This document shows, piece by piece, positions 24,046-58,114 of a stretch of DNA of 64,000 bases (its first letter is position 1; each line of letters starts with the position of its first letter). A program made the translations under genes and the position numbers. The stretch comes from Prorocentrum cordatum. Lineage: Eukaryota. The notes below the pieces were generated by a model that was given only the letters and a program-made list of their open reading frames with translations, had not been told where the DNA came from and made no database searches. The stretch is from positions 124,001-188,000 of the forward strand of contig CAUYUJ010000126.1 of assembly GCA_963575745.1 (NCBI GenBank), given 5' to 3'.

Positions 24046-24046
24046 T

Positions 24047-24121
<75 letters not shown>

Positions 24122-24282
24122 CTGCTGCTGATGATATGTAATGTTGATGGCGATGCTGATGTTGCTATTGCGGAGTACGATGATGGCCATGCTGATGATA
24201 AGGTTGCTGATGATGCTCATGATGAGGCTGATGACACTGATGATGATGATGATGATGATGATGCTGATGCTGATGCTGATGC

Positions 24283-24313
<31 letters not shown>

Positions 24314-24841
24314 AATGTTGCTGATGATGATGATGCTGCTTATGCTGGTAATTGTGCTGATGGCGACTGTGCTGATGCTTATGGCCAGGAGGTTGATGCT
24401 GTTGTGAGTGATGATTAGCATCCTGTTGACCATGAGGATGTTGATGATACTGATGACGATGATGGTGATGATGCTCATGGTGATGGCGGTGATGATGATA
24501 ATGGTAATGATGATGCTGATGCTGATGATGTTGATGATGATAATGCTGATGCTGATTCGGATGATGATGCTGATGATGATGCTGACGATGATTCTGACGA
24601 TGATGATGGTGTCGATGCTGATGATGCTGATGCTCTTGGCGGTGCTGCTGATGATGCTGACGATGATGCTGATGATGCCGAGGCTACTGGCGACGATGCT
24701 GATGATGATGATGCTGATGATCATGATGATGATGATGTTGATGCTGATGGTGATACTCCTCATCATGCTGATGCTGACGCTGACGCTGCGGCTGCTGATG
24801 ATGATGATGATGATGCTGATGCTGATGCTGATGCTGGCGCT

Positions 24842-24872
<31 letters not shown>
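24046..24872. repeat. (GAT)n and degenerate (GAT/GCT)n microsatellite
   Basis: Directly visible. Confidence 0.95.
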
Positions 24873-26030
24873 CCGCGTGCGAGATACTCGTGGCCGTTCC
24901 GTCTGAGACATCTCGGCAATTCCAGGCTCATAGATGTCGCGCACACGGTTGTCCAGCCAGTTTCGTCTGAGACGTCCTCACCACTCTAGGCTCATAGATG
25001 CTGCGTGCGAAATGCTCCACGCAATCGTCTGAGACATCTTGGCAACTTCAGGCTCATAGCTGCCGCGCATGAGATCTTCCAGCCAGTTTCGTCTGAGGCA
25101 TCCTCACGATTCTAGGCTCAGATGCCGCGTGCGAGATGCTCCAGGTCGTCTCGTCTGAGACATCTTGGCAATTCCAGGTTCGTAGATGTCGGGCGCAAGG
25201 TTGTCCAGCCAGTTTCGTCTGAGACATCCGCACAACTCTAGGCTCAGAGATGCCGCGTGCGAGATGCCCCGGGCCGTTTCGTCTGAGACATCTAGGCGAA
25301 GATGTCGCGCACAAGGTTGTCCAGCCAGTTTCGTCTGAGGCATCCTCACGACTGGGCTCAGAGGTGCCGCGTGCTGGATTCTCCAGGCCGTTTCGTCTGA
25401 GACATCTAGGCAACTCCAGGCTCATAGATGTCGCGCACAAAGGTTGTTCAGCCAGTTTCGCTTGAGACATCCTCACAACTCTACGTAGGCTCACGGCGTC
25501 GGCGGCGGCGGCGGCGGCGGTGACGGTGGCGGCGGCGGCGCTTGCTTCGGCGGCGGCATGCGCATTGGGCTCAAAGATGCCATGCGCCAGGTAGTCGGAC
25601 CCATTTCGCCTGAGACATCCTCGCAATTCTGGGCTCAGATCTGCCGTGAGCTGAGGTGGTGGAGCCAGTCTGGCCAGAGTCTGAAACGTTCTCGCAACTC
25701 TGGGCTCAGATACGCCCTGAACTGAGGTGATCCAGTCAGTCTCGCCTGACACATTATCGCAACTCTGGGCTCAGAGATGCCGCTCACGAGGCGGCTAGTT
25801 TCGCCTGAGGCATCCTTTCAACTCTGGGCTCAGACAAGTCCACTCCTGAACTTGTCCAGCCAGTTTCGCTTCAGACATCTTCGCACTGGGCTCAGAGATG
25901 CTGCCGACGAGGTGGTGTGGACAGTTTCGCCTGAGACACCCTCGAAATTGTGGCTGCGGAGTTGCCGCGCACGAGGGTGTCCAGCCAGTCTCGCTTGAGA
26001 CATTCTCGCAGCTCTGGGATCAAGTGCCGT
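24872..26030 (+). repeat. ~62-bp minisatellite carrying the TTTCGYCTGAGACATC box
   Basis: GTCTGAGRCATC-type boxes recur at ~24901, 24965, 25027, 25091, 25154, 25217, 25281, 25333 and 25395 and continue to ~26000. Confidence 0.88.
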
Positions 26031-29311: not shown

Positions 29312-31120
29312 TTGCGCGGTGGCATGAACGAAGGATCAACAGGTTCGGCATCTGCGTCGTCTGCCTCAGCAGCTGTTTCGGGGCCGGACGCGGCTGTGGA
29401 GCTTTTTTCCCGGAAAGGGCATCGGCCCAGGGTTCTCTTTTAGTAGGTAAACCTGTCCCCCGGTGCCAACTTGAGGGAGGCCGGCGAATTTTTTCCCTGA
29501 TAAATAACGAGGTCGAAGGAGGCCGGCGAATTAAAATTTGAGGATGTCTCGAGCGAAACGCTTGTTTTTGAAATCCCGATCGATAAATCACAGGGTGCGG
29601 GCCACTTTTTCGTGTGTTGAGGATGTCTCGAGCGAAACGCTTGCTCCGCAGAGTTTGCCGAGGATGTCTCGAGCGAAACGCTTGTTTTGCAGAGCCGACC
29701 GCGACGCGGAAAAGCGCCCCGCGCGAAGGAATTTCGATGATGTCTCGACTAATTCCTTTGTTTTTGTACGATTTCCTGGAATTTTGGCAGGATGTCTCGA
29801 GCGAAATGCACGACCCCACCCTAGCACGACCATACCCCAGCACGACCACACCCCAGCACGACCAGACCCCAGCACGACCCCACCCCAGCACGACCCCACC
29901 CCAGCACGACCATACCCCAGCACGACCACACCCCAGCACGACCCGACCCCAGCACGACCCTACCCCAGCAAGACCACACCCCAGCACGACCACACCCCAG
30001 CACGACCACACCACAGCACGACCACACCCCAGCACGACCACCACCCAGCACGACCACGCCCCAGCACGACCACCACGCCCCAGCACGACCACACCCCAGC
30101 ACGACCACACCCCAGCACGACCACACCCCAGCACGACCACACCCCAGCACGCACGAGCACGACCCACCCCAGCACGACCACACCCCAGCACGACCACACC
30201 CCAGCACGACCCCACCCAGCACGACCCCACCCCAGCACGACCCCACCCTAGCAAGACCACACCCCAGCACGACCACACCCCAGCACGACCTCACCACAGC
30301 ACGACCACACCCCAGCACGACCACGCCCCAGCACGACCACGCCCCAGCACGACCACGCCCCAGCACAACCACCCCCCAGCACGACCACCCCCCCAGCACG
30401 ACCACACCCCAGCACGACCACCCCCCAGCACGACCACACCCCAGCACGACCACTCCCCAGCACGACCACACCGCCTTGGTTGAGTGGTTGCCTGTCGTCG
30501 TGGAATGTTTCGTGGGGTGTCTCGTGGAATGTTTCGCGGGGTGTCTCCTGGAATGTTTCGTGAGGTGTCTCGCGGAATGTTTCGTGAGGTGTCTCGTGGG
30601 ATGTTTCGTGAGGTGTCTCGTGGGATGTTTCGTGAGGTGTTGCCCCGTTGGGTATCGTGAAAACGTGCCCATGCTCCACATGTCTATATCCCTTTCCGGG
30701 TTCGTGGGTCCATCATGTTTGAATTCGGAATGTTTTTGGCAGCTTCGAGGCAAGTCGGCATCTGAAAGAGCGCGCGATCTCCAAATTAGGCGTGGGTCTT
30801 TGGATTGTGACTATTGTTGTCAGCTCACCTTCACGGGGCGGCCAAAAAAACAAAGTCACACTGGAATGGAGGGTTGCATCGAGCACAAGAAAATCACCGT
30901 GAGAGACCTCCAGTCCATCGGGAGAACAAGTGGTGGGGGAGAGTACGGCGCTACAGAAACCACGAGAGAAACGGACGCAAGCGTGATAGAGCTCATCGGA
31001 ATGGGCATGGACGTGGCGTCGATCGATGACGCCATCGCGCGTTTAACAGCCATTCGGATTCGCAAACTCGAATCCAATAGCCTTCGGCTCATCCGGAAGG
31101 GTGCCGGGGACGTGGCCTAG
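29312..31120 (+). pseudogene. Unknown protein-coding sequence split by element copy A (LRGG-MNEGSTGS...AVEL // LNSECFWQLRGK...KGAGDVA*)
   Basis: Removing 29407-30717 joins the two flanks in one open frame with non-repetitive, protein-like sequence. No family is recognised. Confidence 0.5.
29407..30717 (+). mobile_element. Non-autonomous Helitron2/Helentron-like element, family 1, copy A
   Basis: 5' TTCCCGGAAAGGG with hairpin GGGC-N4-GCCC. 3' CCCTTTCCGGG lies 17 nt before the terminal ...CATCATG. Both flanks are T runs. The interior has GGATGTCTCGAGCGAAA boxes, a 16-bp CCCCAGCACGACCACA minisatellite and a 24-bp repeat. Confidence 0.85.
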
Positions 31121-31583
31121 GTGTTTCAGGGTGTCTTTCCAGGAGACCGTTGAGACGTTCCCCAAACAGTGCTTCATCTCGGGCTGGACGTTGCCTTGTC
31201 GCTGCGTTGCCGCCCGTCGCCGCCTCGTCGCGTTTCGTCGCCGCCCGTCGGTGCCGCGCCGTTGCACCCTCTTCTCGGTGCATTTGTATTGGTCCAGTTG
31301 AGTCGGTCTAATCGACTCGTTCCCATGTACACGATAGTAATATCAGCGAATGTAATGCATAGATTGCACCGCTTAAGACACAGACCGCAGACCGCACAGA
31401 TACCGCCACCCAACTGACATCACATAGAGAGCGCGGCGTAGCTTGCATCACATAGAACGCGTATGTTTGCTTGCTTGGGTCTCAGTCCACTCAGTGGTTG
31501 GGTTCTGCAGGGTTTTCTTGGGAGTTCTGCTTTTTTCAATATATAAAAAGTGGGAAATGCTATCGAATTTGAAAAATTATTTG

Positions 31584-34500
31584 TTCCCGGAAAGGGCTTT
31601 GGCCCAGGGTTCTCTTTTAGTTGGTAAACCTAATCCCCCGGTGCCTGCTTGAAGGAGGCCGGCGAATTGCCGGCGAATTTTTCCCGGAAAGGGCATCGGC
31701 CCAGGGTTCTCTTTTAGTAGGTAAACCTGTCCCCCGGTGCCTGCTTGAGGGAGGCCGGCGAATTTTTTCCCTGATAAATAACGAGGTCGAAGGAGGCCGG
31801 CGAATTAAAATTTGAGGATGTCTCGAGCGAAACGCTTGTTTTTGAAATCCCGATCGATAAATCACAGGGTGCGGGCCACTTTTTCGTGTGTTGAGGATGT
31901 CTCGAGCGAAACGCTTGCTCCGCAGAGTTTGCCGAGGATGTCTCGAGCGAAACGCTTGTTTTGCAGAGCCGACCGCGACGCGGAAAAGCGCCCCGCGCGA
32001 AGGAATTTCGATGATGTCTCGACTAATTCCTTTGTTTTTGTACGATTTCCTGGAATTTTGGCAGGATGTCTCGAGCGAAATGCACGACCCCACCCTAGCA
32101 CGACCATACCCCAGCACGACCACACCCCAGCACGACCAGACCCCAGCACGACCCCACCCCAGCACGACCCCACCCCAGCACGACCATACCCCAGCACGAC
32201 CACACCCCAGCACGACCCGACCCCAGCACGACCCTACCCCAGCAGACCACACCCCAGCACGACCACACCCCACCACGACCCCAGCACGACCACACCCCAG
32301 CACGACCTCACCACAGCACGACCACACACCCCAGCACGACCACGCCCCAGCACGACCACGCCCCAGCACGACCACCCCCCCAGCACGACCACCCCCCAGC
32401 ACGACCACCCCCCCAGCACGACCACCCCAGCACGACCACACCCCAGCACGACCACACCCCAGCACGACCACACCCCAGCACGACCCGATCGATAAATCAC
32501 AGGGTGCGGAGCACCCCAGCACGAACCCACCCCAGCACGACCCCACCCCAGCACGACCCCACCCCAGCACGACCACGCCCCAGCATGACCACACCCCAGC
32601 ACGACCACACCCCAGCACGACCACTCCCCAGCACGACCCCACCCCAGCACGACCCCACCCTAGCACGACCACACCCCAGCACGACCACACCCCAGCACGA
32701 CCCCACCCCAGCACGATCACACCCCAGCACGACCCCACCCCAGCAAGACCACACCCCAGCACGACCGCACCCCAGCACGACCTTACCACAGCACGACCAC
32801 ACCCCAGCACGACCACGCCCCAGCACGACCACGCCCCAGCACGACCACGCCCCAGCACGACCACGCCCCAGCACGACCACCCCCCAGCACGACCACCCCC
32901 CCAGCACACCCCCCCAGCACGACCACCCCCCAGCACGACCACCCCCCAGCACGACCACACCCCAGCACGACCACTCCCCAGCACGACCACACCGCCTTGG
33001 TTGAGTGGTTGCCTGTCGTCGTGGAATGTTTCGTGGGGTGTCTCGTGGAATGTTTCGCGGGGTGTCTCGTGAAATGTTTCGTGAGGTGTCTCGTGGAATG
33101 TTTCGTGAGGTGTCTCGTGGGCTGTTTCGTGAGGTGTCTCGTGGGATGTTTCGTGAGGTGTTGCCCAGTTGGGTATCATGAAAACGTGTCCATGCTCCAC
33201 ATGTCTATATCCCTTTCCGGGTTCGTGGGTCCATCATGTTTCCCTGATAAATAACGAGGTCGAAGGAGGCCGGCGAATTAAAATTTGAGGATGTCTCGAG
33301 CGAAACGCTTGTTTTTGAAATCCCGATCGATAAATCACAGGGTGCGGGCCACTTTTTCGTGTGTTGAGGATGTCTCGAGCGAAACGCTTGCTCCGCAGAG
33401 TTTGCCGAGGATGTCTCGAGCGAAACGCTTGTTTTGCAGAGCCGACCGCGACGCGGAAAAGCGCCCCGCGCGAAGGAATTTCGATGATGTCTCGACTAAT
33501 TCGTTTGTTTTTGTACGATTTCCTGGAATTTTGGCAGGATGTCTCGAGCGAAATGCACGACCCCACCCTAGCACGACCATACCCCAGCACGACCACACCC
33601 CAGCACGACCAGACCCCAGCACGACCCCACCCCAGCACGACCCCACCCCAGCACGACCATACCCCAGCACGACCACACCCCAGCACGACCCGACCCCAGC
33701 ACGACCCTACCCCAGCAAGACCACACCCCAGCACGACCACACCCCAGCACGACCTCACCACAGCACGACCACACCCCAGCACGACCACGCCCCAGCACGA
33801 CCACGCCCCAGCACGACCACGCCCCAGCACGACCACGCCCCAGCACGACCACCCCCCAGCACGACCCCCCCCAGCACGACCACCCCAGCACGACCACCCC
33901 CCAGCACGACCACACCCCAGCACGACCATCACCCAGCACGACCACACCCCAGCACGACCTCCCCAGCACGACCCGACGATAAAGCAGGGTGCGGAGCACC
34001 CCACCGAACCCACCCCAGCATGACCACACCCCAGCACGACCACGCCCAGCACGACCACGCCCCAGCACGACCACACCCCAGCACGACCACCCCCAGCACG
34101 ACCACACCCCAGCACGACCACACCCCAGCACGACCACACCCCAGCACGACCACACCCCAGCACGACCCGACCCCAGCACGACCCTACCCCAGCAAGACCA
34201 CACCCCAGCACGACCACACCCCAGCACGACCTCACCACAGCACGACCACGCCCCAGCACGACCACGCCCCAGCACGACCACGCCCCAGCACGACCACGCC
34301 CCAGCACGACCACCCCCCAGCACGACCACCCCCCCAGCACGACCACCCCCCAGCACGACCACCCCCCAGCACGACCACACCCCAGCACGACCACTCCCCA
34401 GCACGACCACACCGCCTTGGTTGAGTGGTTGCCTGTCGTCGTGGAATGTTTCGTGGGGTGTCTCGTGGAATGTTTCGCGGGGTGTCTCGTGAAATGTTTC

Positions 34501-34658
34501 GTGAGGTGTCTCGTGGAATGTTTCGTGAGGTGTCTCGTGGGCTGTTTCGTGAGGTGTCTCGTGGGATGTTTCGTGAGGTGTTGCCCAGTTGGGTATCATG
34601 AAAACGTGTCCATGCTCCACATGTCTATATCCCTTTCCGGGTTCGTGGGTCCATCATG
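31584..34658 (+). mobile_element. Family 1 copy B (outer element, interrupted by copy C)
   Basis: 5' end at 31584. The body resumes at 33239 (TTTCCCTGATAAATAACGAGG) and ends CATCATG at 34658. Confidence 0.82.
31681..33238 (+). mobile_element. Family 1 copy C, nested in the internal T6 run of copy B
   Basis: Both ends are complete. The flanks reconstruct GAATTTTTTCCCTGATAAA as seen in the uninterrupted copies. Confidence 0.85.
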
Positions 34659-34889
34659 TTTTTTTATGTTTTCGGGGTTCTTTTTGGGGTGTTCTGTGGT
34701 TCTCAGTCCATTCAGCGGTTGGGTTCTGCAGGGCTTTCTTGGTGGTTTACCTTCTTCAGTGTATAGAAATTGGGAAATGCTGTCGAATTGGACAATTTTG
34801 GTTCTGGGGTGTTTTTGTATGTTTTTGGGTGTTTCTGGGGGTTTCCTGTGGTTCTCAGTCCACTCACTGGCTGGGTTCAGCAGGGTTTT

Positions 34890-35952
34890 TTCCCGGAAAG
34901 GGCGGGGGCCCAGGGTTCTCTTTTAGTTGGTAAACCTAATCCCCGGTGCCAACTTGAAGGAGGCCGGCGAATTTTTTCCCTGATAAATATCGAGGTCGAA
35001 GGAGGCCGGCGAATTAAAATTTGAGGATGTCTCGAGCGAAACGTTTGTTTTTCAGAATTTGTTGAGGATGTCTCGAGCGAAACGCTGGTTTTGCAGAGTT
35101 GGGGATGTCTCGAGCGAAACGCTTGTTTCAGAATTTGCCGAGGATGTCTCGAGCGAAACGCTGTGTTTTGCAGAGCCGACCGCGACGCGGAAAAGCGCCC
35201 CGCGCGAAGGAATTTCGATGATGTCTCGACTAATTCGTTTGTTTTTGTACGATTTCCTGGAATTTTGGCAGGATGTCTCGAGCGAAATGCACGACCCCAC
35301 CCTAGCACGACCATACCCCAGCACGACCACACCCCAGCACGACCAGACCCCAGCACGACCCCACCCCAGCACGACCCCACCCCAGCACGACCATACCCCA
35401 GCACGACCACACCCCAGCACGACCCGACCCCAGCACGACCCTACCCCAGCAAGACCACACCCCAGCACGACCACACCCCAGCACGACCACACCACAGCAC
35501 GACCACACCCCAGCACGACCACGCCCCAGCACGACCACGCCCCAGCACGACCACGCCCCAGCACGACCACCCCCCAGCACGACCACCCCCCAGCACGACC
35601 ACCCCCCAGCACGACCACCCCCAGCACGACCACACCCCAGCACGACCACACCACACCCCCAGCACGACCACACCCCAGCACGACCACACCCAGTCGCACC
35701 CCCGTGGAATGTTTCGTGGCGTGTCTGGTTGAGTGGTTGCCTGTTCGTGGGGTGTCTCGTGGAATGTTTCACGGGGTGTCTCGTGGAATGTTTCGTGAGG
35801 TGTCTCGTGGAATGTTTCGTGAGGTGTCTCGTGGGATGTTTCGCGGGGTGTCTCGTGGGATGTTTCGTGAGATGTCGCCCAGTTGGGTATCGTGAAAACG
35901 TGACCATGCTGCACATGTCTTTATCCCTTTCCGGGTTCGTGGGTCCATCATG
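34890..35952 (+). mobile_element. Family 1 copy D
   Basis: Same termini, with extra GAGGATGTCTCGAGCGAAACG boxes. It is inserted in a local repeat whose empty versions lie at ~31507 and ~34728. Confidence 0.85.
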
Positions 35953-36516
35953 TTTGGGGGCCCTCCTTGTGCAGTGTATAACATAGGAGGAATTGTTGTC
36001 GAATTATCAGCACAGCGTAGCTGGCACCACCTGTGTTGCAATACATATATTGCAGCATATAGCTTACACCACATGTACAAAAACAACGTGGCGTACAACA
36101 CATACGTTGCACCACATATGTTGCACAGCGCAGATCGAATCGGTCCAATCGAATCGGTCCAATCGAATCAGACCAATTCAATCGGTCGCAGTTCCATCGA
36201 TGTCAATGCCTAGATGACACCGCATACCTTGCACCACAGAGCGTGCACCACATAGATGGCACCGCACAGCGTGCATCACATAGTTTGCGCCACATAAATT
36301 GCGCCACATAGCTTGTACCATGTAGATTGCACCGCATAGATGGCACCACAACAGTTGCACCACGTGGATTGTACGTCGTTGTTTGCGCGTCCTCAATTGC
36401 ACCACGTAGTTTGTATCACATAAACTGCTTCGCATACATTGCACCACGTGGGATGCACCGCCGTATAGGATGCAAGAACCTGCAGTATTGTTTGAGGTCC
36501 ACGGTGGCCAGCATTT

Positions 36517-39500
36517 GTGCGAATACATCAATTGGCTTTGAGATGTTTCAAGCAGGCGCATGAAGAAATCGACAACACAGGAAGAATGCACCTGGCTGTG
36601 TATCAGCACGGCGGCGGATTTCAATTTCCTCTTCGCGAGAAGGAGAGTCCAAACTTGGGCGGACGGGGTTTTAGTCGGGACGTGGACACGCCGTTGGCAG
36701 CGGAGGCAGACGCGGCGTCCATGTACAAGAATTTTGTTCCGCGGTCCCGCATGGCCAACCCCATCGGCTTGTTATCCGTGCGCATTGGGCAGCCCTCTTG
36801 GTGGTGCGTTGACAATTTCCGCGTGCGCGTGGCGTCCATGGTGGAGTGGTTCAACAGACGCGAACGGCTAGCAGCGCCGGACCTCGATCATAAGCAGCGC
36901 GCAGTTTTGTCGAAAGATATGGGCCTGGTTGCGCGCGTGAATCGCCGTTGCCGAGATGACACCCCTTCATCCCAATTTGCTTTCGATCATTACCGGGTAC
37001 ACATCGACGCAGGGGGCAACTTGCTTGAGCAGCTACTCGACCTCATGGTGAACGTGTTCGTGGTTAGAAATTCGTTGTCCCATAGTGTGCGCGAAGATCT
37101 CAAGGGCTATGCGTTCCCTTGGCTTCGTGCTTCGTTGCTCGGCGGGGCCCTGTCAAATGTGGACGAGCTGTATGTGTATTATGCGAGGACGAAAGGAGAT
37201 TTTTCCCGGAAAGGGCTCGAGCCCAGGGTTCTCTTTTAGTTGGTAAACCTAATCCCCCGGTGCCAACTTGAAGGAGGCCGGCGAATTTTTTCCCTGATAA
37301 ATATCGAGGTCGAAGGAGGCCGGCGAATTAAAATTTGAGGATGTCTCGAGCGAAACGCTTGTTTTTGAAATCCCGATCGATAAATCACAGGGTGCGGGCC
37401 ACTTTTTCGTGTGTTGAGGATGTCTCGAGCGAAACGCTTGCTCCGCAGAGTTTGCCGAGGATGTCTCGAGCGAAACGCTTGTTTTGCAGAGCCGACCGCG
37501 ACGCGGAAAAGCGCCCCGCGCGAAGGAATTTCGATGATGTCTCGACTAATTCGTTTGTTTTTGTACGATTTCCTGGAATTTTGGCAGGATGTCTCGAGCG
37601 AAATGCACGACCCCACCCTAGCACGACCATACCCCAGCACGACCACACCCCAGCACGACCAGACCCCAGCACGACCCCACCCCAGCACGAGCCCCACCCC
37701 AGCACGACCATACCCCAGCACGACCACACCCCAGCACGACCCGACCCCAGCACGACCCTACCCCAGCAAGACCACACCCCAGCACGACCACACCCCAGCA
37801 CGACCTCACCACAGCACGACCACACCCCAGCACGACCACGCCCCAGCACGACCACGCCCCAGCACGACCACGCCCCAGCACGACCACCCCCCAGCACGAC
37901 CACCCCCCAGCACGACCACCCCCCAGCACGACCACCCCCCAGCACGACCACACCCCAGCACGACCACTCCCCAGCACGACCACACCCCAGCACGACCACA
38001 CCCCAGCACGACCACACCCAGTCGCACCCCCGTGGAATGTTTCGTGGGTGTCTGGTTGAGTGGTTGCCCGTGTTTCGTGGGGGTGTCTCGTGGAATGTTT
38101 CGTGAGGTGTCTCGTGGAATGTTTCGTGAGGTGTCTCGTGGGATGTTTCGCGGGGTGTCTCGTGGGATGTTTCGTGAGATGTCGCCCAGTTGGGTATCGT
38201 GAAAACGTGACCATGCTGCACATGTCTTTATCCCTTTCCGGGTTCGTGGGTCCATCATGTTTCGGCACGTTCGTGAATCCAATGCGAACGAGGAAAGAGT
38301 TGAAACTCGAGGGGTTCCACATCTTCATTGCAGAGCTGGAACATTTCGCTTCCAGGGTATCTAGGTGCCTTCGGCCGACCCCGCCACCGCGCTCGGGTTC
38401 CGAGTCAGAGAGCCTTTGAGTGTCAGTGGGGATCTCGCGCTATGTCCCTGGAAGGCTCGCTTGTGGTTTTCTTGGAGCCTCTCGTGGGCCTGTTGGGGCT
38501 TCTGGGGACTTGTTTGGGGTTTTCGCGGAGCCTCCTGGGCTTGCAGGAGGCCTGTCGTGGGTCCAGGGAGGCCCCCTGAGGTTCCTTGCGGTGTGTTGGC
38601 AGCGGTTTGCGGCCGACTGCCCGGCAATTCCGTTTGAATGCCCCGCATGGGGCACCCGATGGAGTTGTTTTCGGGGCCTTCTCTGGCCGTTTTGGTTCAT
38701 GTTTGGGGTTCGTTGGCGCTCTCGCGGGCCGCTTTGGGGCCGCGTCGGAGGCTTCTGGGGCCGCCAGGGGCCGAATGCGCTGTTTTGGGGTGTAGGGGGG
38801 CTGAAAGCGCGATGCATTGGAAACAAAACTTTCATAAACAAAAAAGACAAGCTATGATTGTTCCCCCTTAGGGGCCTCTTGGGAAGTCGTGGAAGCCAGC
38901 TGGGGCGTCTTGGAGGCCTGCAAGGTCGTCTGAAGGCCATGTTGAACGTCTCAGAGCGATATGTGGGCTTCGGCGGTCTTGGAGGCCCTCTGGGGCTCTC
39001 TTGTCTGTGCCTGTGTTTGGCTACCACGCTCTGGGAACTCCAGCAGGCGAGCGAGCAGCCGCAGGAACTTCGGCAGTTCGGGCTCTGGGCCCCGTGAAGA
39101 CTCCGCAGGAGTGAGGACTTGGGCCTCAGGGGATTGCGCAGAAGACCTGACGCCGCGCTCACTCCTTGCGTTGCGGCGCGGTGGCGGGTTAACGCTGCTG
39201 ACAGTTTTTGTGGATCGATGGGACTTGGGCGATTTTTTTGACGGGCTGCAGGGGGTGAAGGGCCTTGGCGGGACAGGCTTCCGAGCGAAAGAGCTGCTCT
39301 GCGATTTCGTGGCCGTGCTCCCCTCGCTCGAGCGTCAGATTGGTCGCGAGAATCTGGCGGGGATTCAGGTTGCCTTTGTCTCCATCAAGGTAATCGGCGT
39401 GGGCCCTTGTCGAACAGTGAATTTCTTATTCAACCGCCCTTTTTTTCTGAACGAGGAGAAGAGCCCTGACCAGAAACGCGACTTATACATGGAAGCCCTG

Positions 39501-39800
39501 GAGTACGTGGTCGATTACCTCAGGGAGGAACACAAAACAGAATATGCGGGCCGTTCTTTCCTCGATATATGCTATGAGCTGTGCGAATATAATAAGGAGC
39601 TGCTGTCCGCTTTCCTTGACCGAGGCCGCCCGTATAAGCCTACCAAGTACAAGAATGGTAGCGCACGCCACATGTCGTTGGCGGCGGCGACGGAGGAGGC
39701 TCGGAAGCTGATGGAGGGGCGCGCCACTAGACAGTCGTGGTTGACGTTGGCAGGGCAGGAGTGGTTCGAGCTCACGGAGTACGAGATGATGGGGGTGTAA
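36517..39800 (+). pseudogene. aGPT-pyrophosphorylase clade 1 / amino-acid:DNA-transferase-like gene (HhH-glycosylase fold), disrupted by element copy E, a probable intron (~38.36-39.1 kb) and a 5' frameshift
   Basis: Motifs occur in family order: WFNRRERL (36847), VNRRCRDD.PSSQF (36937), LMVNVFVVRN, GGTGFRAKELLCD (39267), IGVGPCRTVNFL (~39393), LDICYELCEYNK (39561). The assignment rests on motif recognition only; no search was run. Confidence 0.6.
37203..38259 (+). mobile_element. Family 1 copy E, inserted in coding sequence
   Basis: Same termini. Removal restores YYARTKGDFFGTFVNPMRTRK, which matches the paralogue YYERTNGFVRTLVDPMRTKK. Confidence 0.9.
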
Positions 39801-40271
39801 GTATGTAGTTGCGCCGTGCTCCCGAAAATGGAAAAAAGTGGGCGCCCTTGCCGTTGCGCCGGCAAGCGGGGATAGCCTCGAGAGGGCGCGGATTCGGGAT
39901 GGGGATTCGGGGAGGGGCTGGGAGGGAGGGAAACAGTAGTCAAGCTAGGTGCGCCCGCGCTACGTCTGACATCCGCCGCTTCCCTCCCATCCCTTCTTTT
40001 TGCGCGAACTATTTGTTTTCACCGAATCAAGCGGCGCAGCTGTCCTCCGCGCCTGGGAGTGGACCGGGGCAGGGGGAGGGGGAGGGGGAGGGGCTTGTGC
40101 GTTTAGACTCGCTCGCTGCTGGCGGGGGTGGTTCTTCGCCTGGTTCGTGAGCTGGCGGTGGAGTGCCCGGGGCGGAGGAGGCGGGCGCCCCCGGCTCGGC
40201 TGGTCCGCCCGCCTGTTCGGTTCGGCCAGAGGTGGAGGAGGAGGAGGAGGAGGAGGAGGAGGAGGATGTGA

Positions 40272-40980
40272 GAGTTGTGAGGATGTCTCAGGCGAAAGAG
40301 GCTTGACGGCCCGAGCTCAGGGAATCTCGGAATCGCTGGCCTGGCTCGGCCACTGGCGAGCTCGGCCTGTGCGAATACTGTGCGTACCTGTGCGGGGCAT
40401 GTGCGGGACGCGCAAGAATGCCGGGGCCGACGTTCGTCTCTGGGCGCCGGCGCATTCGCGTCCGCGCGCAAGCCGCGCGCGGACGCAGCGTTCGCTTCAT
40501 TGCGCGGCCCCGACAGACGGGGCGCCCCGCTCACGCTCCGCACAGGCGCGGCTAGTGTCTCGGCCTTTTCCGCCTGAGACCCTCGCAACTCTGGGTTCCG
40601 AGATGTCCTGAACAGGTGGTCAGGCCACTCGTGCCTGAGACATCCTCGCAACTCTGGGTTCCGAGACGCCCTGGGTTGAGGTGGTCAGACCACTCTCGCC
40701 AGAGACATCCTCGCAACTCTGACGTCAGAGATCTCTTGCCCCATGGAGGTCAGGCCACTTTCGCCTAAGACATCCTCGCAACTCAGACCTCGGAGGTGTC
40801 CTGCCCCATGGCCCATGGTGGTCTGGTCACCTTGACCAGCGACATCCTCGCCACTCTGGTTTCCAAGATGGCCTGCCCCATGGTGGTCCTGCCACGCTTG
40901 CCTGAGACATCCTCGCCACTCTGGGTTGCGAAATGCCCCGAGCTCAGGTGTTCAGGCCACTATCGCCTGCGACATCTCTG
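40272..40980. repeat. ~65-bp minisatellite with CGCCTGAGACATCCTCGCAACTCTG box (40555-40980) and one inverted unit at ~40272-40335
   Basis: About 7 direct units plus the reverse-complement unit GAGTTGTGAGGATGTCTCAGGCGAAA. Confidence 0.8.
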
Positions 40981-41224
40981 CGGCATGTGCGGGCATGTGC
41001 GTCTACATGTGCGTCTATGGTTTCAGAGGTTTGCTTGGCCGTGCATTCGACTGTGCGTCCGACGGTGTGGCATGTGCGCGCATGTGCGGCAATGCTGTTG
41101 AGGCTCTTGTATATGTGCATGGGCATGTGCATGCGACTGTGCGGCATGTGCCTGCATGTGCGGCCCCTTCCGGACCGCAATTGCAAAGTGAGCACTATAG
41201 AAGTGAACGCTATAGAAGTGAATC

Positions 41225-43100
41225 CGGTGTATACGGGCGGCGCAGTTCGAGGAAAGCGGACATCACTTACTATTCGGACAGCTCGTGTCACACGCGAGGA
41301 AAGAACGGCCTGTGTATTATGTTTTGTGATTCTTCCTGAAGTGGCCAGGCGTTCCAGCGTTTCCATGTATACGTCGCGTTTCTGGTCGGGGTTTTTCTCT
41401 TCGTTCAGGAAAACGGGGCGGTTAAACAAGGGATTCGTCTTTCGACAAGGGCCCGCGACGATAACTGTAACAGGGACAAAGGCCACCTGCATTCTCTCCA
41501 GGTTCTCGCGGCCCGTATGAATCTCCAACGAGGGAGGCGCCGCCATGAAATCGCAGAGCAGCTCTTTCGTTCGGAAGTCTGTCCCGCCCTGGTTCTTCAT
41601 CCCTTGCAGCTCGCTACACAAATCTCCCACGGCCCAGCGATCCACAAAAGCTGTCAGCAGCGTTAACCCGCATGGCAAGGAGTGAGCGTGCCGTCAGGTC
41701 TTTTGCCTAATACCATGAGGCCCAATCTTCGCTCCTTCGGAGTCTTCAGTGGGCCCATGGCCCGAAGTGCCACATTTCCTGGGGCTGCGCCCCAAAGCTG
41801 CCCACGAAAGCGCCAACACCCCCCAAAGTACGTGCTCCAAGACGGCCGCAGTGGTTTTCAAAACGGCTCCACCGGGAAGCCCAAACGGGGGGGCGATCGT
41901 AATTGTCGGGCCCTGGGTCCCAAACCACTTCCAGAACACCGCAAGGAACCCCCAAGAGGCGCCCGTGGACCCACAACAGGCCTCCCACAATCCCAAGGGA
42001 CCCCCCCCCGAAGGTTCCAAACAAGCCCCCAGAAGCCCCAACATGGTCACGAGAGGCTTCAAATCAGCCGCAAGCACGTCCCCGAGGGACCTAGCACGAG
42101 ATCTCCGCCAACAGTCGAAGGTTCTCTGATTCACAACCCGGGCATGGTGGCGGGATCGGCCGAGGGCACGCAGATACCCCGGAAACGGAAAGTTCCAGGT
42201 TTGCAGTGAACAAGTGGGCCCCCTCTGGTTACAGCCCTTTTTTTTGTTCGCATTGGATCCACGAGCGTGCGGACAAATCCATTCGTCCTCTCATAATACG
42301 CACGCAGTTCGTTCACATTTGCCAGGGGCCCGCCGAGCAGGGAAGCACGAAACCAAGGAAAACCATGGCTTTTAAGATCTTGTCGGACAAGCTGGGCCAA
42401 CGAAGTCGTAGCCACGAGCACGTTCACAATGAGCTGGAGTAGCTGCTCAAGCAAGTTCCTCCCTGTGTCGATGTGTATCCGGTAATGCTCGTAAGCAAAT
42501 TGGGCCGAATGCGTGTGACGGTCCATGTCCTATATCTTTCGACAGCACTGGCGGTTCACGCGTGGCGGTTCACGCGCGCAGTGGCGGTTCACGCGTGGCG
42601 GTTCACGCGCGGCGGTTCCCGAATCCCGGCAGTGACGGTTCACGCGCGCGACCAATCCCATATCTTTCGACAGCACTGCGCGCTGCTTCTGATGAAGGTT
42701 TGGCGCTGCTAGCCGTTCGCGTCTGTTGAAGTGCCCCATCATGGACGCCGTGCTCACGCGGAAATTGTCAAGCACCGCCAATCAGGCCGCCCAGCGCGCA
42801 CGGATAACAAGCCGATGAGGGTGGCCGTGTGGGACCGCGGAACAAAGTGTTAGCACATGGAGGCAACGTTTGCCTCCGCTGCCAACGGTGTGCCCACGTC
42901 CTGAATAAAGCCCCGCCCGCCAAGCGTGGACCCTCTTTCTCGCGAAGAGGACGTTCGAGTCCACCGCCGTCTTGATGCGCAGCCAGGTGCTGCCGCGCGT
43001 GTCTTTGATTTCTTGGCGCACGTCCGTGGAACATCCCAGAGGCAATTGACATTTTGGAACAAAGTTTAGCCACCTTGGACTTCAAACCGTAATGTAGGTT
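41225..43100 (-). pseudogene. Second, more decayed copy of the aGPT-pyrophosphorylase-like gene in inverted orientation
   Basis: ORF fragments 42530-42781, 42131-42526 and 40944-41678 align with the + copy (e.g. FNRRERLAAPNLHQKQRAVLSKDMGLVARVNRHCRD; GGTDFRTKELLCDF; NRPVFLNEEKNPDQKRDVYMETLE). Several stops and frameshifts are present. Confidence 0.75.
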
Positions 43101-43439: not shown

Positions 43440-46400
43440 CGCGATGGATTTGCGTGGCTGTGCGTGGGTATCATGGGGGTCGGGGAATCTTTTTTGGAGG
43501 TGGATGTAGTTTTCGGAGACAGTGGCTGGAGGAATCGGTGTTCGTGACATTGCGTGGGTGTGTGTGGATGTCCTGGGGGCCGGGAATTTGTATTTGTGGT
43601 GGCCGTAGTATTCGGAGACAGTGGTTCGGGGAATATGTTTTCGTGTTTTTGCATGGTTGTGCGTCATATATTGGGCGCCGGGAATTGGTGCGGGTAGTGG
43701 TTGCCGTATTCGGAGACACTGGCTGGGTGAATGAGGGCCGGGGAATTGCTTCTAGTGCTAGTTGCCGTATTCGGATACAATGGCTGGGGGAATCTGTTTT
43801 AATGATTTTGTGAGGCTGCGCGTGGATTTCCTGGGGGGCTGGGGAATTTGTTTAGGCGGTGGTTGTAGCATTCGGCGACGCTGACTGGGAGAATTTGTTT
43901 TCGTGATTTGCGTGGCCATTGGATTAGTCGGGGTGGTGGGTGTAGCTTTCGGGGACAGTTGCTGGGGGAATCCGTTTCGTTATGTTGTGTGGTTTTGCGT
44001 GGACATCCTGGGGGCCAGGGAATTTATTTTGGAGGTGTTGTACTACTCGGATACCATTGGTTGGGGGAATCTGTTTTTTCGTGATTTGGTGAGGCAGTGC
44101 GTGCATATTCGGGGGCTGGGGGATTTGTTGTGATGGTGGTTGTAGTAAGTGGCTAAGGGAATGTGTTTTCATGACTTGGTGTGGTTATGCGTGGATATCT
44201 TGGGGGCGTGGGATCTTGTTCTGGTGGTGGATGTAGTATTCGGGGGCAGTGGCTGGGAGAGTTTTCCTTCGTGATATTGTGCGGCCACGTATGGATATCC
44301 TGGGGGGCGGGTAACCTTTTGCGGGTGGTTGTAGTATTCGGAGACGGTGGCTGGAGAGAATCTGTTTTCGTGATTTTGCGTGGCTGTGCGTGGATATCCT
44401 GGGGGCTTCGGAATATGATTTCGTGGTGGTCGCGGTACGCGGAAACAGTGTCTGAGGGAATCGTTTGTCGTGATTGTCCATAGGTCTACGTGGATATCCT
44501 GGGGGCCTGGGAATTTGTGTTGGTGGTGGTTGTAATATTCGATGACAGTGGCTGGGGAAATCTGTTCTCGTGGTTTTGTGTGGTTGTGCGTGGATATCCA
44601 GAGGGCACGGGAATTTGCTTGGGTGGTGATTGTAGTATTCGGAGACAGTGGTTGGGCAGTCTGTTTATGTGATTTTGTGTAACTGTCATGGATATCCACG
44701 GGGCCGGGAAACATTTTTTGGTGGTGGTTGTAGTTTTCGGCGGCAATGGCTGTGGGAATGTGTATTGATTTTGCGTGGTTGGGCGTGGAGATCCGGAGGG
44801 CCGAGGACTGTCTTGTGGTGGTGGTTGTAGTATTTGGAAACAGTGGTCGGGGGCATATGTTTCCGTGTTCTTGCGTGTTTGAGCGTGGATATCTTGGGGG
44901 CCGGGGAATTTGTTTCGGTGGTGATGGTAGCATTCAGAGACAATGGCTGGGGGAATCTGTTTTCGTGATTTCGCGTGGCTATGGGAGGATATCCTGGGGT
45001 TTGGGTTTTTTTGGTGGTGGGTGTAGTCTTTGGAGACAGTGTCTGGGGGAATGAGGGCTGGGGAATTTTCTTCTAGTAGTAATTGTAGTATTCGGAGACA
45101 GTGGTAAGGGGGGAATATTTTTGTATGATTTTGTGTGGATTTGCGTGGAGATCCGAGAGGTTGGGGAATGTGTTTTGGCGGTGATTTTAGAACTCGGAGA
45201 CGGTAGCTGGGGGAATAGTTTCCGTGATTCTGCGTGGTTGTGCGTGGATATCGTGGGAAGGCGGGGAATTTGTTTCGGTGGTGGTTGCAGTATTCGGCGA
45301 CAATGGTTGGGGGCATCCGTTTTGGTGATTTTGCGTGGGTGTGCGTGGAGATCTGGAAGGCGGGGGAATTTGTTTTGGTGGTGGGTGTAGTATTCGGAGA
45401 GTGGCTGGGGGAATCTGTTGTCGTGGTATCGCGTGGCTGTGCGTGGATATCACCGGGGCGAGGGAATCTGTTCTGGTGGTGGTTGTAATAATTGGAGACA
45501 GCTTGGGGGAATCCGTTTTCGTGCTGTTGCGGTGCGTGGATATCCTGGGGGCTGGGGAATGTCGTTTGTTGGTAATTGGAGTATGCAGAAACAGTGGTTG
45601 GGGGAATCAGTTGTCGTGAGTCTGCGTGGTTGTTTGTGGATATCCTGGGGGCTGGGAAATTGGTTTGGGTGGTGGTTGTAGTATTCGGAAACAGTGGTTG
45701 GGGGAATCCGTTATTCTAGACATACTTGTAGTATTCGGAGTCAGTGGCTGAATGATTCTGTTTTCGTGATTTTGTGTGGCTGTGCGTGGATATTTTGGGG
45801 AGCTGGGTAATTTGTTTTGGCGGTGGTGGTCGTATTCGGAGTCAGTGGCTGGGGGAATGTGTTCTCGTGATTTTGCGCGGCTGTGCGTGGATATCCCAGG
45901 GGGTGGGGAATTTGTTTTGGTGGTGGATGTAGTTTCTGGCGGCAATGGCTGTTGGGATCAGTTTTCGTGATTCTGCGTGGCTGTGCGTGGATATCCTGGG
46001 GGGGTGGGGAATTTGTTTCGGTGGTGGTTGGAGTATTCGGCGATAATGGTTGGGGGCATCGGTTGTGGTGATTTTGCGTGGGTGTGCGTGGAGATCGGGA
46101 AGGCTGTTTTCGTGTTTTCGCGTGGCTATGCGAGGATATCCTCGGGTTCCTTCTTTTGTGGTGGGTGTAGTATTTGGAGGCAGTGTCTGGGGGAATGAGG
46201 GCTGGGGCATTTCTTCTAGTAGTAGTTGTAGTATTCGGAGACAGTGGCAAGGGGGGAATCATTTTGTATGATTTTGTGCGGCGCTGCGTGGGGATCCGAG
46301 GGGTTGGGGAATTTGTTTTGGCGGTGATTTAAGAATTCGGAGACGGTGGCTGGGGGAATAGTTTCCGTGATTCTGCGTGGTTGTGCCTGGATATCGTGGG

Positions 46401-49050
46401 GGGGCGGGGAATTTGTTTCGGTGGTGGTTGCAGTATTCGGCGGCAATGGTTGGGGGCATCCGTTTTGGTGATTTTGCGTGGGTGTGCGTGGAGATCTGGA
46501 AGGCCGGAAATTTGTTTTGGTGGTGGGTGTAGTATTTGGAGACAGTGGCTGGGGGAATCTGTTGTCGTGGTATCGCGTGGCTGTGCGTGGATATCCTCGG
46601 GGCGAGGGAATATGTTCTGGTGGTGGTTGTAATAATCGGAGACAGTACTTGGGGGAATCCGTTTTCGTGCTGTTGCGTTGCTGTGCGTGGATATCCTGGG
46701 GGCTGGGGAATGTCGTTTGTTGGTGATTGGAGTATGCAGAAACAATGGCTGGGGGAATCAGTTTTCGTGAGTCTGCGTGGTTGTGCGTGGATATCCTGGG
46801 GGCCGGGAAATTTGTTTGGGTGGTGGTTGTAGTATTCGGAAACAGTGGTTGGGGGAATCCGTTCTTCTAGACATACTTGTAGTATTCGGAGTCAGTGGCT
46901 GGAGGATTCTGTTTTCGTGATTTTGTGTGGCCGTGCGTGGGTATTTGGGGAGCTGGGTAATTTGTTTTGGCGGTGGTGGTAGTATTCGGAGTCAGTGGCT
47001 GGGGGAATTTGTTCTCGTGGTTCTGCGCGGCTGTGCGTGGATATTCCGGGGGGGTGGGGAATTTGTTGTGGTGGTGGATGTAGTTTTCGGCGGCAATGGC
47101 TGTGGGAATCAGTTTTCGTGATTCTGCGTGGCTGTGCGTGGATATCCTGGGGGGGGGGGGGAATTTGTTTCGGTGGTGGTTGGAGTATTCGGAAATAATG
47201 GTTGGGGGCATCCGTTTTGGTGGTTTTGCGTGGGTGTGCGTGCAGATCCGGAAGGCTGGGGAATTTGTTTTGGTGGTGGGTGTAGTATTCGGAGACAGTG
47301 GCCGGGGGAATCTGTTGTCGTGGTATCGCGTGGTTGTGCGTGGATATGATCGGGGTGAGGGAAGATGTTCTGGTGGTGGTTGTAATAATCGGAGTCAGTA
47401 CTTGGGGGAATCCGTTTTCGTGCTGTTGCGTTGCTGTGCGTGGATATCCAGGGGGCTGGGGAATTTCGTTTGTTGGTGATGGGAGTATGCGGAAACAGTG
47501 GCTGGGGGAATCTGTTTTCGTGAGTCTGCGTGGTTGTGCGTGGATATCCTGGGGGCCGGGAAATTGGTTTGGGTAGTGGTTGTAGTATTCGGAAACAGTG
47601 GTTGGGGGAATCCGTTCTTTTAGACATACTTGTAGTATTCGGAGACAGTGGCTGGGGGAGTCTGTTTTCGTGATTCTGTGTGGCTGTGCGTGGATATCTT
47701 GGGGGGTTGGGTCATTTGTTTTGGTGGTGGTGGTAGTATTCGGAGACAGTGGCTGGGGGAATTTGTTCTCGTGATTTTGTGCGGGTTTGTGCGTGGATAT
47801 CGGGGGGGGGGTGGGGAATTTGTTGTGGTGGTGGATGTGGTTTTCGGCGGCAATGGCTGTGGGAATGTGTTGTCGTGATTTGGCGTGGCCGGGCGTGGAG
47901 ATCTGCAGGGCTGGGGAATTTAGTTTGTTGGTGGGGGTAGTATTCGGAGACAGTGGCGGGGGGAAGCTGTTGTCCTGCTATCGCGTGGTTTTGCGTTGAT
48001 ATTCTCGGGGCGGGGGAATTTGTTGTGTCATGGTTTGTTGATGGTTGTAATCTTCGGTGACAGTGGCTGGGGGAATGTGTTTTGTGATTTCGTGTGGTTG
48101 TGCGCGGACATCTTGGTGGCTAGACTTTTTGCATTGGCGGTGGTTATAATATTCGGAGACAGTGGCTGGGGGTATTTGTTTTCGTGATTTGGCGTGGCTG
48201 TACGTGGATATCCTGGGGGCCAGAGGATTTGTTCTGTTGGTGGGTGTACTACTCGGAGACAATAGCTGGGGGAATGTGTTTTTGTGCTGTTGCGTGGCTG
48301 TGCGTGGATATCCTGGGGGTTCGGGCATTTGTTATGTGGGTGTTCTAGTATTCGGAGAGAGTGGCTGGGGGAACCTGTTTTCGTGATTTGGCGTGACTGT
48401 GCGGGGATATCCACGGGGACAGGAAGTTGGTCTGGGTGGTGGTTCTAGTATTCGGATATTGTGTCTGGGGGAATCCGTTTTCGTAATTTTGCGCGCCTCT
48501 GCGTGGGTATCTTGGGGGTTGGGGCATTTGTTTGGGTGGTGGTTGTGGTATTCAGAGACAGTGGTTGGGGGAATATGCTTTCTTGATTTTGTGTGGCTGT
48601 GCGTGGATATCCAGGGGGGCAGGGGAAATTGTTTTGGTGGTGGTTGTAGTAGTCGGCGGCAATGGCTGGGGGCACTTGTTTTCGTGACTTGTGTGGCTGT
48701 GCGTGGAGATCTGGAAGGCCGGGGAAGTTGTTTTGGTGGTGGGTGTACTATTCGGAGACAGTGGCTGGGGGAATCTGTTGGCCTGGTATCGCGTGGCTGT
48801 GTGTTTTTTTTCTCGGGGCGGGGGAATATGTTTTGGTGGCGGTTGTAATACTCGGAGACAGTAGTCGGGAGAATATGGTTTCGTGGTGTTGCGTGGCTGT
48901 GCGTGGATATCCTGGGGTTGCGGAATTTGGTCTGTTGGTGGTTTGAGTATGCGGAGCTAGTAGTTGGGGGAATCAGTGCGTTGTAGTGATATAAGAAAGC
49001 CAGGTAGGGGGAATCTGTTCGTGGGGTGTTGCGTGGATACCGGGAGAAGG
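43440..49050. repeat. Diverged ~98-bp satellite with higher-order structure; resumes at ~50155-50202 and 51205-51600
   Basis: Monomer is approximately TGTAGTATTCGGAGACAGTGGCTGGGGGAATCTGTTTTCGTGATTTTGCGTGGCTGTGCGTGGATATCCTGGGGGCCGGGAATTTGTTTTGGTGGTGGT, repeated ~55 times. Confidence 0.93.
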
Positions 49051-49604
49051 GGCAATATGTTCGCGCGATGTTTCGTGAGTGTCCCGGGAGAGGGGAACTT
49101 GTTGTAGCGTGCAATTGTTGGGTACACGAAAATTCAGTTGCGTTGTAGTGATACACGACAGTCTGGTTGGGAACGATCCGACAGCGAATTAGTGGCCCCA
49201 GCCTGGCGGGTTTCCATGAAGGGGAGGCGTTTTCGCCCGGTCGCCGCGTTGCGCTTCCTGCTGGGAGCGTTGCGTCCAGAGGCCACGGCCCGCAGGTCAT
49301 GTGTTTGAGCGTTGCGGAAAGTCATGCAAATCCTGTAAGCGTAAGCGATGATCGTTCGCGGCCTCGGGGATGACGAGGGGGAATTTGTTTTTCTGTCCTT
49401 TTAAGGAGACACGCAAATTCCCCCCCCCCATCGGTTCACTTTGACTGACATCATGCCGCCGCAGGCGCTGTTCCTCGCTATGTACACACTGTCGCCAGGT
49501 CGCCGCCATTCAAAAACGATGGCCAGGAGAGCTGACGGGAGATCGTTGACTTGGGAGATCTCGGGTAGCGAACGTTCGATGTGGTGATCTCTGGTAGCGA
49601 AGGG

Positions 49605-57777: not shown

Positions 57778-58114
57778 CAGTCCGCAGGGGGCGCCAGTAG
57801 AAGACCACCATGCCTGGCCAGGGCCATGCCCCGAGGCCCAGCTCTCCCAAAAAATCAGCAGAGGCCACTTTGGTGCAACGTTGGAGCGAACATTCTGCGG
57901 TTCTTCGTAAGTGCGGCGCTAGCAGGAGGAGGGCGAGGAGGAGGAGGCGGAGAAAGATGAGGAGGAGGAGGAGGAACAGCAGCAGCAGCAGGACGAGGGG
58001 AGGGAGCAGGAGGAGGTGGGAGGAGTTGGCGACGACAACGCGCGCCGAGGCTCAAGCTAGCTGGTTGGCTGCCGCAGAGCCCAACTTCGGGTTGCGCCGT
58101 GGCCGGCGGGCGCC

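Follow-up and report, generated by a model that had tools for sequence, protein, structure and literature searches.

The stretch of Prorocentrum cordatum DNA analysed here (64,000 nucleotides (nt) of contig CAUYUJ010000126.1, hereafter the window) carries an inverted pair of copies of one gene, and both copies are pseudogenes. This gene belongs to a family that forms a new and divergent eukaryotic branch within a known superfamily, the aGPT-Pplase proteins, and whose intact members may act on 5-hydroxymethyluracil (5hmU) in DNA. We hold the homology and the pseudogene status with high confidence. As an explanation of the whole, we regard it as on balance probable that the window preserves dead copies of a divergent sister of aGPT-Pplase clade 1 whose living relatives would have a role connected with 5hmU; that 5hmU-directed role, judged separately, we put at just short of an even chance. 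The locus would then hold two dead copies, inverted relative to each other, of a nuclear gene whose family is unannotated and found in dinoflagellates; one of them (copy 1) was inactivated by insertion of a repeat element and the other (copy 2) decayed through many mutations. What gives the locus its value is the family that it reveals, the locus itself being a dead copy: a hunch at the level of motifs has become a defined family, with an alignment and a set of invariant residues, 132 representatives, two models of high confidence, and members named in Prorocentrum and Karenia.

Copy 1 spans 36586-39800 on the plus strand (Table 1). A sequence-only reading of this DNA had picked out two open frames there and taken them, apart from an insertion and a probable intron, for the halves of one protein. 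Both frames stand in a stop-to-stop list of open reading frames (ORFs) (36496-37239 and 38946-39800, plus strand), together with a third plus-strand frame, 38060-38419, which carries FGTFVNPMRTRKELKLEGFHIFIAELEHFASR at its end, and a related minus-strand frame at 40944-41693. By alignment and tblastn, the homologue P0003, of 550 amino acids (aa), matches the plus strand in three collinear blocks in order, its residues 120-304 at 36628-37197, 303-344 at 38249-38374 and 355-507 at 39225-39695. Given this collinearity, and an open frame once the insertion is removed in silico, the two halves are one gene. The short third piece implied by such a reading is also there, as FGTFVNPMR...HFASR at 38261-38356, with a possible extension to 38366 should the donor be GC. 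The earliest in-frame ATG lies at 36586, with homology to P0003 beginning at 36628 and homology to a second relative, P0148, at about 36682. Of the columns that are invariant in the family alignment, copy 1 matches 28 of 28, and of the near-invariant ones 10 of 14.

The insertion had been placed at 37203-38259, and these limits prove exact for a 1,057-nt element; the extra DNA comprises that element plus one of two flanking TTT. Copy 2 is uninterrupted across the same site, position 37197 pairing with 42278 and 38262 with 42273. In-silico removal of 37203-38262 leaves a single open frame of 237 aa, from M36586 to R38356, which reads ...YARTKGD-FGTFVNPMR... across the join. Left in place, the insertion causes a +1 frameshift, and reading on in the exon frame meets a stop (37237-37239) 35 nt inside the element, so that the inactivation suspected for this copy is borne out. 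The inactivation looks recent, because all 28 invariant residues are kept. The element has TTT on both flanks and 11-nt inverted subterminal motifs, and it contains a 16-nt tandem array (~37600-38020) and 24-nt repeats (~38080-38190).

Copy 1 might instead still be functional, its 1,060-nt element being removed from the transcript in the manner of an 'introner'-type intron. Introns derived from transposons abound in dinoflagellate genomes, taking the element out brings the frame back exactly, and the full set of invariant residues is intact. Even so, we think this very improbable. The element begins TT and ends TG/GT/TT, and no GT/GC/GA...AG pair occurs at its borders in any register that the flanking T-runs allow; with such ends, it is not a plausible intron. 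In addition, the exon frame stops within it, no RNA contig lies over the locus, and neither an N-terminal region nor a clear start was found.

Copy 2 is without the insertion. It has several stops and frameshifts and an internal expansion of ~106 nt, and its reading frame is broken well ahead of the Cys-Glu motif. The similarity between the copies stops at 41230, opposite 39636, just beyond that motif. Three short public-library proteins, P0042, P0067 and P0097, are 100% identical to the copy 2 frames 42526-42134, 41546-41139 and 42742-42533, so pieces of copy 2 have been called as genes somewhere. The DNA sequencing run X1 contains the same sequence as the locus, together with two short variant contigs of 94-96% similarity; in runs X3 and X18 only a 44-nt repeat at 38876-38919 was matched.

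Could the pieces be unrelated open frames in repeat-rich DNA that resemble a protein family by accident? The region is indeed full of repeats, and neither Pfam nor PHROGs gave anything relevant for the window ORFs, with no PF18723 match at E ≤ 1. We give this explanation next to no chance. Searched on its own against 5.8 billion proteins, the C-terminal frame retrieves P0001 (E 3e-30) and P0002 (E 3.6e-22), both uncharacterised and both without a Pfam match at E ≤ 10. Because this one piece reaches such a value and all 28 invariant residues are present, chance resemblance is excluded on sequence grounds; the collinear P0003 matches and the 77% identity of copy 1 to P0148 speak against it as well.

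A search with P0001 leads to P0003. A family profile built from six sequences was searched against 1.84 billion representative proteins and gave 132 matches at E ≤ 1e-3, 72 at E ≤ 1e-10 and 26 at E ≤ 1e-30. One candidate, P0074 (a 2,693-aa VWA-repeat protein in which profile positions 232-285 matched twelve times), was dropped as spurious. Comparisons used an alignment of 21 family sequences (A3); an alignment of all 132 matches (A5) was too fragmentary and went unused. Intact members are ~500-650 aa long and share the invariant motifs G-x-G-F-R-x-K-E-x3-D, V-G-P-C-R-x2-N and Y-E-x-C-E-x2-K. Full-length members also have N-terminal C-x2-C...H...C (C2HC-type) motifs or a SAP domain, the latter found in one family member (E 2.8e-12) among the 28 matches scanned with Pfam. 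A metagenome scan gave two loci only. P0001 had no tblastn match (E ≤ 10) among 50,697 phage records, and scans that relied on two peptide patterns turned up no relative in IMG/VR (0 of 32 pattern stretches) or among the genomes of 185,579 prokaryote species (0 of 25). The metagenomic copy L001 (865-1989) is 96% identical to P0002 and otherwise open, and lacks the nine residues LCIFYELCE that hold the Cys-Glu motif.

The dinoflagellate origin proposed from the letters of the DNA is supported by the names of its relatives. When 30 clusters were looked up, five had an organism name, three of these being dinoflagellate labels: P0015 is labelled Prorocentrum cordatum and P0019 Karenia brevis, and P0148 (755 aa, in the cluster of P0024), labelled P. 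cordatum and also Polarella glacialis, is identical to the first piece of copy 1 at 127 of 165 residues (77%). The P0148 gene model is itself chimeric, with a Vps35 C-terminal domain at residues 4-152 (E 7.7e-19), a gap of ~440 aa and then the N-terminal half of the family; it ends ...NVEDLCV, eight residues short of the point at which copy 1 is interrupted. In EukProt, P0024 and P0043 carry the label 'Pyramimonas sp. CCMP1952', a green alga. P0024, which shows 77% identity to the window, clusters at ≥90% identity with a P. cordatum protein, and to judge by such sequence matches the Pyramimonas labels look like dinoflagellate contamination or a mislabelled transcriptome.

The superfamily link runs through PF18723, whose current Pfam name is HMUDK_hel, '5-hmdU DNA kinase, helical domain' (5-hmdU, 5-hydroxymethyldeoxyuridine). 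Sequence comparison identifies PF18723 with the aGPT-Pplase clade 1 of the phage literature, because its sole match in phage PaMx11 is gp50 (140.7 bits), which directly follows the kinase gp49 and precedes a thymidylate-synthase homologue, because the gene order of phage SN1 likewise sets aGPT-Pplase1 beside a nucleotide kinase (PMC9476957, in part), and because BFVD rows carry both names. The position of gp50 draws also on Table 1 of PMC8989533; PaMx11 gp46 scores 97 bits against PF18724, 'ADDT'. In a complete IMG/VR phage (L009), the clade-1 gene has a ribonucleotide reductase on one side and a thymidylate-synthase homologue on the other. Two unknown ORFs, of 249 and 417 aa, adjoin that module.

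Among the 28 profile matches scanned, nine exceed the PF18723 cut-off, all from the weak end of the match list (E 1.7e-6 to 8.8e-4). Profile-profile comparison of the family (A3) by hhalign gives Prob 99.4, E 3.8e-21 over 304 columns against nine PF18723-bearing proteins (A4), and Prob 97.8, E 1.3e-12 over 257 columns against A8, which comprises 18 IMG/VR clade-1 proteins (18 of the 30 IMG/VR loci were used, L032 being left out for 13 stops in its given-frame translation) and PaMx11 gp50. In the latter alignment the helix-hairpin-helix (HhH), GPxxR and LCE..K elements are in register; for scale, A4 against A8 gives E 4.5e-84. A language-model look-alike search, taken as a lead only, pointed to PF18723, PF18746 and PF18724 clusters (scores 0.77-0.79). 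The ordered clade-1 motifs are all found in copy 1, and in register in both hhalign alignments: an Arg-rich N-terminal helix, R-x-N/T-N-V-x-R...T and N-x-x-L-x-R, followed in order by G-x-G-F-x-A-K-E-x3-D, G-P-x-x-R-x-x-N and L-C-E-x-x-K, the last at 39573-39596.

The homology to PF18723 therefore holds, while membership by the Pfam cut-off does not. Since the profile-profile matches are sound yet that cut-off is unmet, the family is best described, on these comparisons, as a divergent and distant sister of PF18723 and not an ordinary member. The two are homologous over ~260-300 residues, with the same motif order (the third motif taking the form L-C-E-[FY]-x-K) and a predicted HhH-glycosylase-like fold in both. 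On the other hand, they share only ~18-20% identity, and all 21 members of the window family fall below the cut-off. Unlike clade 1, the window family has signatures of its own (FG-T-x-VNPMR-x-R and N-x2-L-x-RNTLS) and N-terminal extensions of 150-250 aa with the C-x2-C...H...C motif or SAP domain; it is eukaryotic (dinoflagellate), and in the window it has no kinase or thymidylate-synthase neighbour.

The HhH-glycosylase fold expected for this protein receives support from AlphaFold2 models of two homologues, computed from 62-sequence alignments. The P0003 model has a mean local confidence score (pLDDT) of 84.5 and a global template-modelling score (pTM) of 0.76; the corresponding values for the domain-sized P0011 are 92.1 and 0.90. 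In a wide VIA-align search, independent of Foldseek, ranks 1-12 (P0003) and 1-22 (P0011) are exclusively HhH-glycosylase-type chains, headed by AGOG (Z 9.6 and 8.7) and DUF2419/QNG1 (Z 9.6 and 9.3) and including Ogg, AlkA, Mag1, EndoIII, MutY and OGG1; the tool warns that Z below ~13 can be unspecific for helical proteins. The clade-2 protein PUGT (8z2m_A) scores Z 6.8 with 223 residues aligned and Z 6.6 with 205, and below the HhH chains come unrelated P450s at Z ≤ 4.4. Foldseek against BFVD lists HMUDK_hel, Pplase1 and AADT proteins as its top named rows (prob 0.87-1.00, E > 0.001), among them the HMUDK_hel proteins of phiRSL1 (E 2.8e-3, prob 1.00) and PhiW-14 and the 637-aa SP10 5-hmdU DNA kinase (prob 0.98). 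A sequence-profile search of the PDB gave no match at E ≤ 10. Taken together, the models give consistent support for an all-helical, HhH-glycosylase-like fold, and not proof of it.

Such a fold raises the possibility that the family consists of true DNA glycosylases or lyases, which would remove 5hmU or another base for repair, erasure or boundary-setting. The best structural matches (Z 9.6-5.0) are indeed glycosylases or nucleoside hydrolases; they share with the window family a helix-hairpin-helix followed by a Gly/Pro-rich loop, and the family has an invariant Asp (D381 in P0003) after the hairpin. Nevertheless, we consider this explanation improbable. The canonical spacing from hairpin glycine to Asp in HhH glycosylases is ~20 residues, whereas here the invariant Asp follows the hairpin glycine by only nine and the loop itself, V-G-P-C-R, is without Asp. 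There is no sequence similarity to the HhH glycosylases, with no HhH-GPD match in the 21 members, and the conserved Cys-Glu-Lys cluster of the family is not a glycosylase feature. The sequence homology is to the aGPT-Pplase superfamily, in which the relatives that have been solved and assayed, those of clade 2, are group transferases.

Clade 2 (PF18724; M6 gp51, ViI gp247, PaMx11 gp46/PUGT 8Z2M, and the Pplase2 proteins of YuA and SH-Ab 15599) thus provides the only relatives with a demonstrated reaction. According to the excerpted text of PMC8989533, a 5-hmdU DNA kinase forms 5-phosphomethyl-dU (5-PmdU), and M6 gp51, ViI gp247, PaMx11 gp46 and PhiW-14 gp109 then attach glycine, serine or putrescine to it. 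Two residues are essential, a Cys and a Glu close by (Cys247 and Glu243 in PUGT), and an exocyclic-methylene intermediate finds support in trapping experiments. Metal-binding residues have likewise been reported for clade 2. By its models, the window family would share the fold class of clade 2, and both have a conserved Cys near the C-terminus in an L-C-x-[WFY]-x-K context. The label 'amino-acid:DNA transferase', which the sequence-only reading had attached to copy 1, belongs by demonstration to clade 2 acting on monophosphorylated 5-PmdU, and for copy 1 it goes too far. The family has no detectable sequence match to clade 2.

By analogy, intact members of the window family would bind nuclear DNA, helped by their N-terminal C2HC-type Cys/His motifs or SAP domain, and flip out a 5hmU-type base. 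The conserved Cys/Glu/Lys cluster might then act on, or present, the C5 substituent of the flipped base, as clade 2 does with phosphorylated 5hmU; alternatively, at this step the protein might serve a separate kinase. A transferase-like covalent mechanism through the Cys seems to us doubtful. It is also unlikely, in our estimate, that the family enzyme both recognises and chemically elaborates 5hmU, alone or with a DNA kinase, as a descendant or sister of the phage hypermodification machinery.

A series of results weighs against a clade-1-like protein with a 5hmU-directed role. The proteins modelled were P0003 and P0011 rather than the window's own broken one, neither the PDB nor BFVD yielded a Foldseek match at E ≤ 0.001, and all VIA Z-scores (maximum 9.6) lie under the level that the tool regards as safe for helical proteins. 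The PF18723 gathering cut-off (25 bits) is reached by 0 of the 21 family members, one of them giving a weak match at E 0.082, and the family profile matches the lone gp50 weakly (E 0.074), in register. Toward clade 2, A3 finds no match in PaMx11 gp46 (E 0.51, 15 columns) and none of the 21 members matches PF18724 at E ≤ 10; Glu243 of PUGT lies four residues before Cys247, a position at which the family has Tyr, its Glu residues being at -2 and +1. The M6 glycine-transfer reaction was reconstituted without gp52, gp53 and gp55 (PMC8989533, in part), of which gp55 is taken as the clade-1 protein from the gene order of the similar phage SN1, and the same excerpts contain no report of a biochemical activity for clade 1. 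PF18724 is found in 0 of five viral records that bear clade 1 (L006, L009, L016, L024 and L034, three of them ≥90% complete; PaMx11 gp46 served as positive control), and on this sequence survey clade 1 commonly occurs without clade 2. Because clade-1 activity is unreported there, gp55 is dispensable and no viral record in this set has PF18724, the analogy to clade-2 chemistry is weak.

The locus itself adds to this list. Metatranscriptome X20 has no contig there. The N-terminal ~120 aa of full-length homologues, Cys/His motif included, were not found upstream of copy 1 by tblastn with P0003, and copy 2 does not show them either. Partner genes did not appear: no kinase, TET/JBP or thymidylate-synthase gene is present among the 57 ORFs scanned in the window, and tblastn with the PaMx11 gp49 kinase gave no significant match there. 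Eukaryotic genes need not cluster.

Several of these results would also suit a family of non-catalytic 5hmU readers, or base-flipping adaptors, that recruit or serve another enzyme such as a DNA kinase. The name HMUDK_hel, the match to the SP10 kinase (where the domain appears fused to the kinase), the position of gp50 directly after gp49, the want of reported clade-1 catalysis in the excerpts of PMC8989533 and the N-terminal SAP or Cys/His DNA-binding additions of the eukaryotic family all fit an adaptor of this sort, which we regard as unlikely, though to be reckoned with. A Cys-Glu-x2-Lys motif that is invariant in the family, in the PF18723 proteins and in viral clade 1 would be unusual for a pure binding module. 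Furthermore, the M6 kinase worked without gp55 (PMC8989533, in part), a kinase domain is present in 0 of the 21 family members scanned, and the five viral records have no transferase partner. That a eukaryotic branch with neither kinase nor transferase has kept the Cys-Glu-Lys cluster speaks for an activity residing in the domain itself.

The reading of these proteins as a divergent clade-1 sister with a possible 5hmU role bears on an unusual feature of dinoflagellate DNA, in which 12-68% of thymidine is replaced by 5hmU made by a JBP-type enzyme (PMC11572971, in part). That thymidine hydroxylase, identified only in 2024, comes from the same organism group as the window family; it has an unrelated 2-oxoglutarate/Fe(II) dioxygenase fold, no such gene is present in the window, and its product has been linked to transposon silencing (PMC11572971, in part). 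The excerpts of PMC11572971 name no protein that reads, extends or removes 5hmU, and they cite hypermodification work in the reference list only. Being homologous to proteins kept in phage 5hmU-modification modules, the members of the window family are candidates for eukaryotic 5hmU handling. Should they elaborate 5hmU, dinoflagellate DNA would contain undiscovered hypermodified thymidines or a transient phospho-5hmU, a second eukaryotic 5hmU-derived base after base J. On this reading the copies of the family also turn over quickly, as the inverted pseudogene pair shows. Full-text literature searches, covering papers without their supplements, found no paper that links the superfamily to dinoflagellates. 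Iyer et al. (2013) reportedly described such systems from basidiomycetes as well as from algae of the chlorophyte and stramenopile groups, which may bear on priority.

The probable intron between the two halves of copy 1 fared less clearly than the insertion. A spacer of ~800 nt does separate ...HFASR from ...LTLLTVFVDRW..., and it is present in both copies; no single pair of borders is singled out. For the GT at 38357 there is no AG in phase. Another 55 GT/GC/GA..AG pairs are in frame, those nearest to the homologue length being GC38367..AG39204 and GC38367..AG39144. The related metagenomic gene L001 is uninterrupted at this point. Since copy 2 has the spacer too, it is older than the duplication, and it may be an intron. 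The 44-nt motif at 38876-38919, inside the spacer, has a summed word depth of ~4,400 in DNA run X1, against 5-10 for its flanks, and occurs also in sequencing runs of a second organism.

Table 1. Coordinates of the two gene copies, their motifs and the inserted element in the 64,000-nt window.
Feature	Coordinates	Strand	Basis
Copy 1, first coding piece (N-terminal half of catalytic domain)	36586-37202	+	ORF, alignment, tblastn
Motif NFVPRS	36730-36747	+	copy 1 first piece
Motif WFNRRERL	36847-36870	+	copy 1 first piece
Motif RVNRRCRDDTPSSQF	36934-36978	+	copy 1 first piece
Motif NVFVVRNSLSHSVR	37051-37092	+	copy 1 first piece
...YARTKGD	end at 37200	+	copy 1 first piece
Repeat-element insertion, 1,060 nt net	37203-38262	+	empty site in copy 2, in-silico excision
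Copy 1, coding continuation past insertion, (F)GTFVNPMRTRKELKLEGFHIFIAELEHFASR	38263-38356	+	alignment, tblastn
Intron-like spacer, ~800 nt (approximate coordinates)	38357-39179	+	common to copy 2
Copy 1, C-terminal half	~39180-39797, stop codon 39798-39800	+	ORF, alignment, tblastn
Helix-hairpin-helix motif GLGGTGFRAKELLCD	39261-39305	+	copy 1 C-terminal half
VIGVGPCRTVN	39390-39422	+	copy 1 C-terminal half
YELCEYNK, with Cys-Glu pair	39573-39596	+	copy 1 C-terminal half
Copy 2, inverted tail-to-tail paralogue, 74-82% nt identity	41230-43227	-	nucleotide comparison
Further same-strand copies of inserted element, directly upstream of copy 1 (n = 4)	29404-30719, 31677-33240, 33239-34660, 34887-35954	+	

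The element that interrupts copy 1 is thus present five times on one strand within 9 kb (29404-38262), in units of ~1.06-1.56 kb, the last of them inside the gene. The length of the 16-nt array varies among the copies, T-runs lie on both flanks, and no recognisable protein is encoded. A non-autonomous transposon and a locally amplified satellite unit are candidates for its class.

The spacer between the 3' ends of the inverted copies (39636-41230, ~1.6 kb) holds 65-nt tandem repeats, five units that are 66-83% alike, especially at 40615-40976, as well as G/C-rich low-complexity runs. The window as a whole is repeat-rich, with a G+C content of 43-65% per 2 kb. No Rfam family was found in the window. 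A dinoflagellate spliced-leader motif had no match there (≤3 mismatches) or in L001 and L002 (≤4 errors), a negative that carries no information in genomic DNA. Low-complexity or short-period repeats form long tracts at 1-3000, 12400-15400, 24000-25000 and 44000-49500, and the GC skew per 2 kb reaches +0.58 where the window begins and values of +0.53 to +0.56 at 44-48 kb. At the far end, an open frame of at least 1,980 aa (58061-64000, plus strand) runs off the window; its residues 1270-1570 match a UCH domain (E 4.4e-8), the only other Pfam domain among the ORFs scanned.

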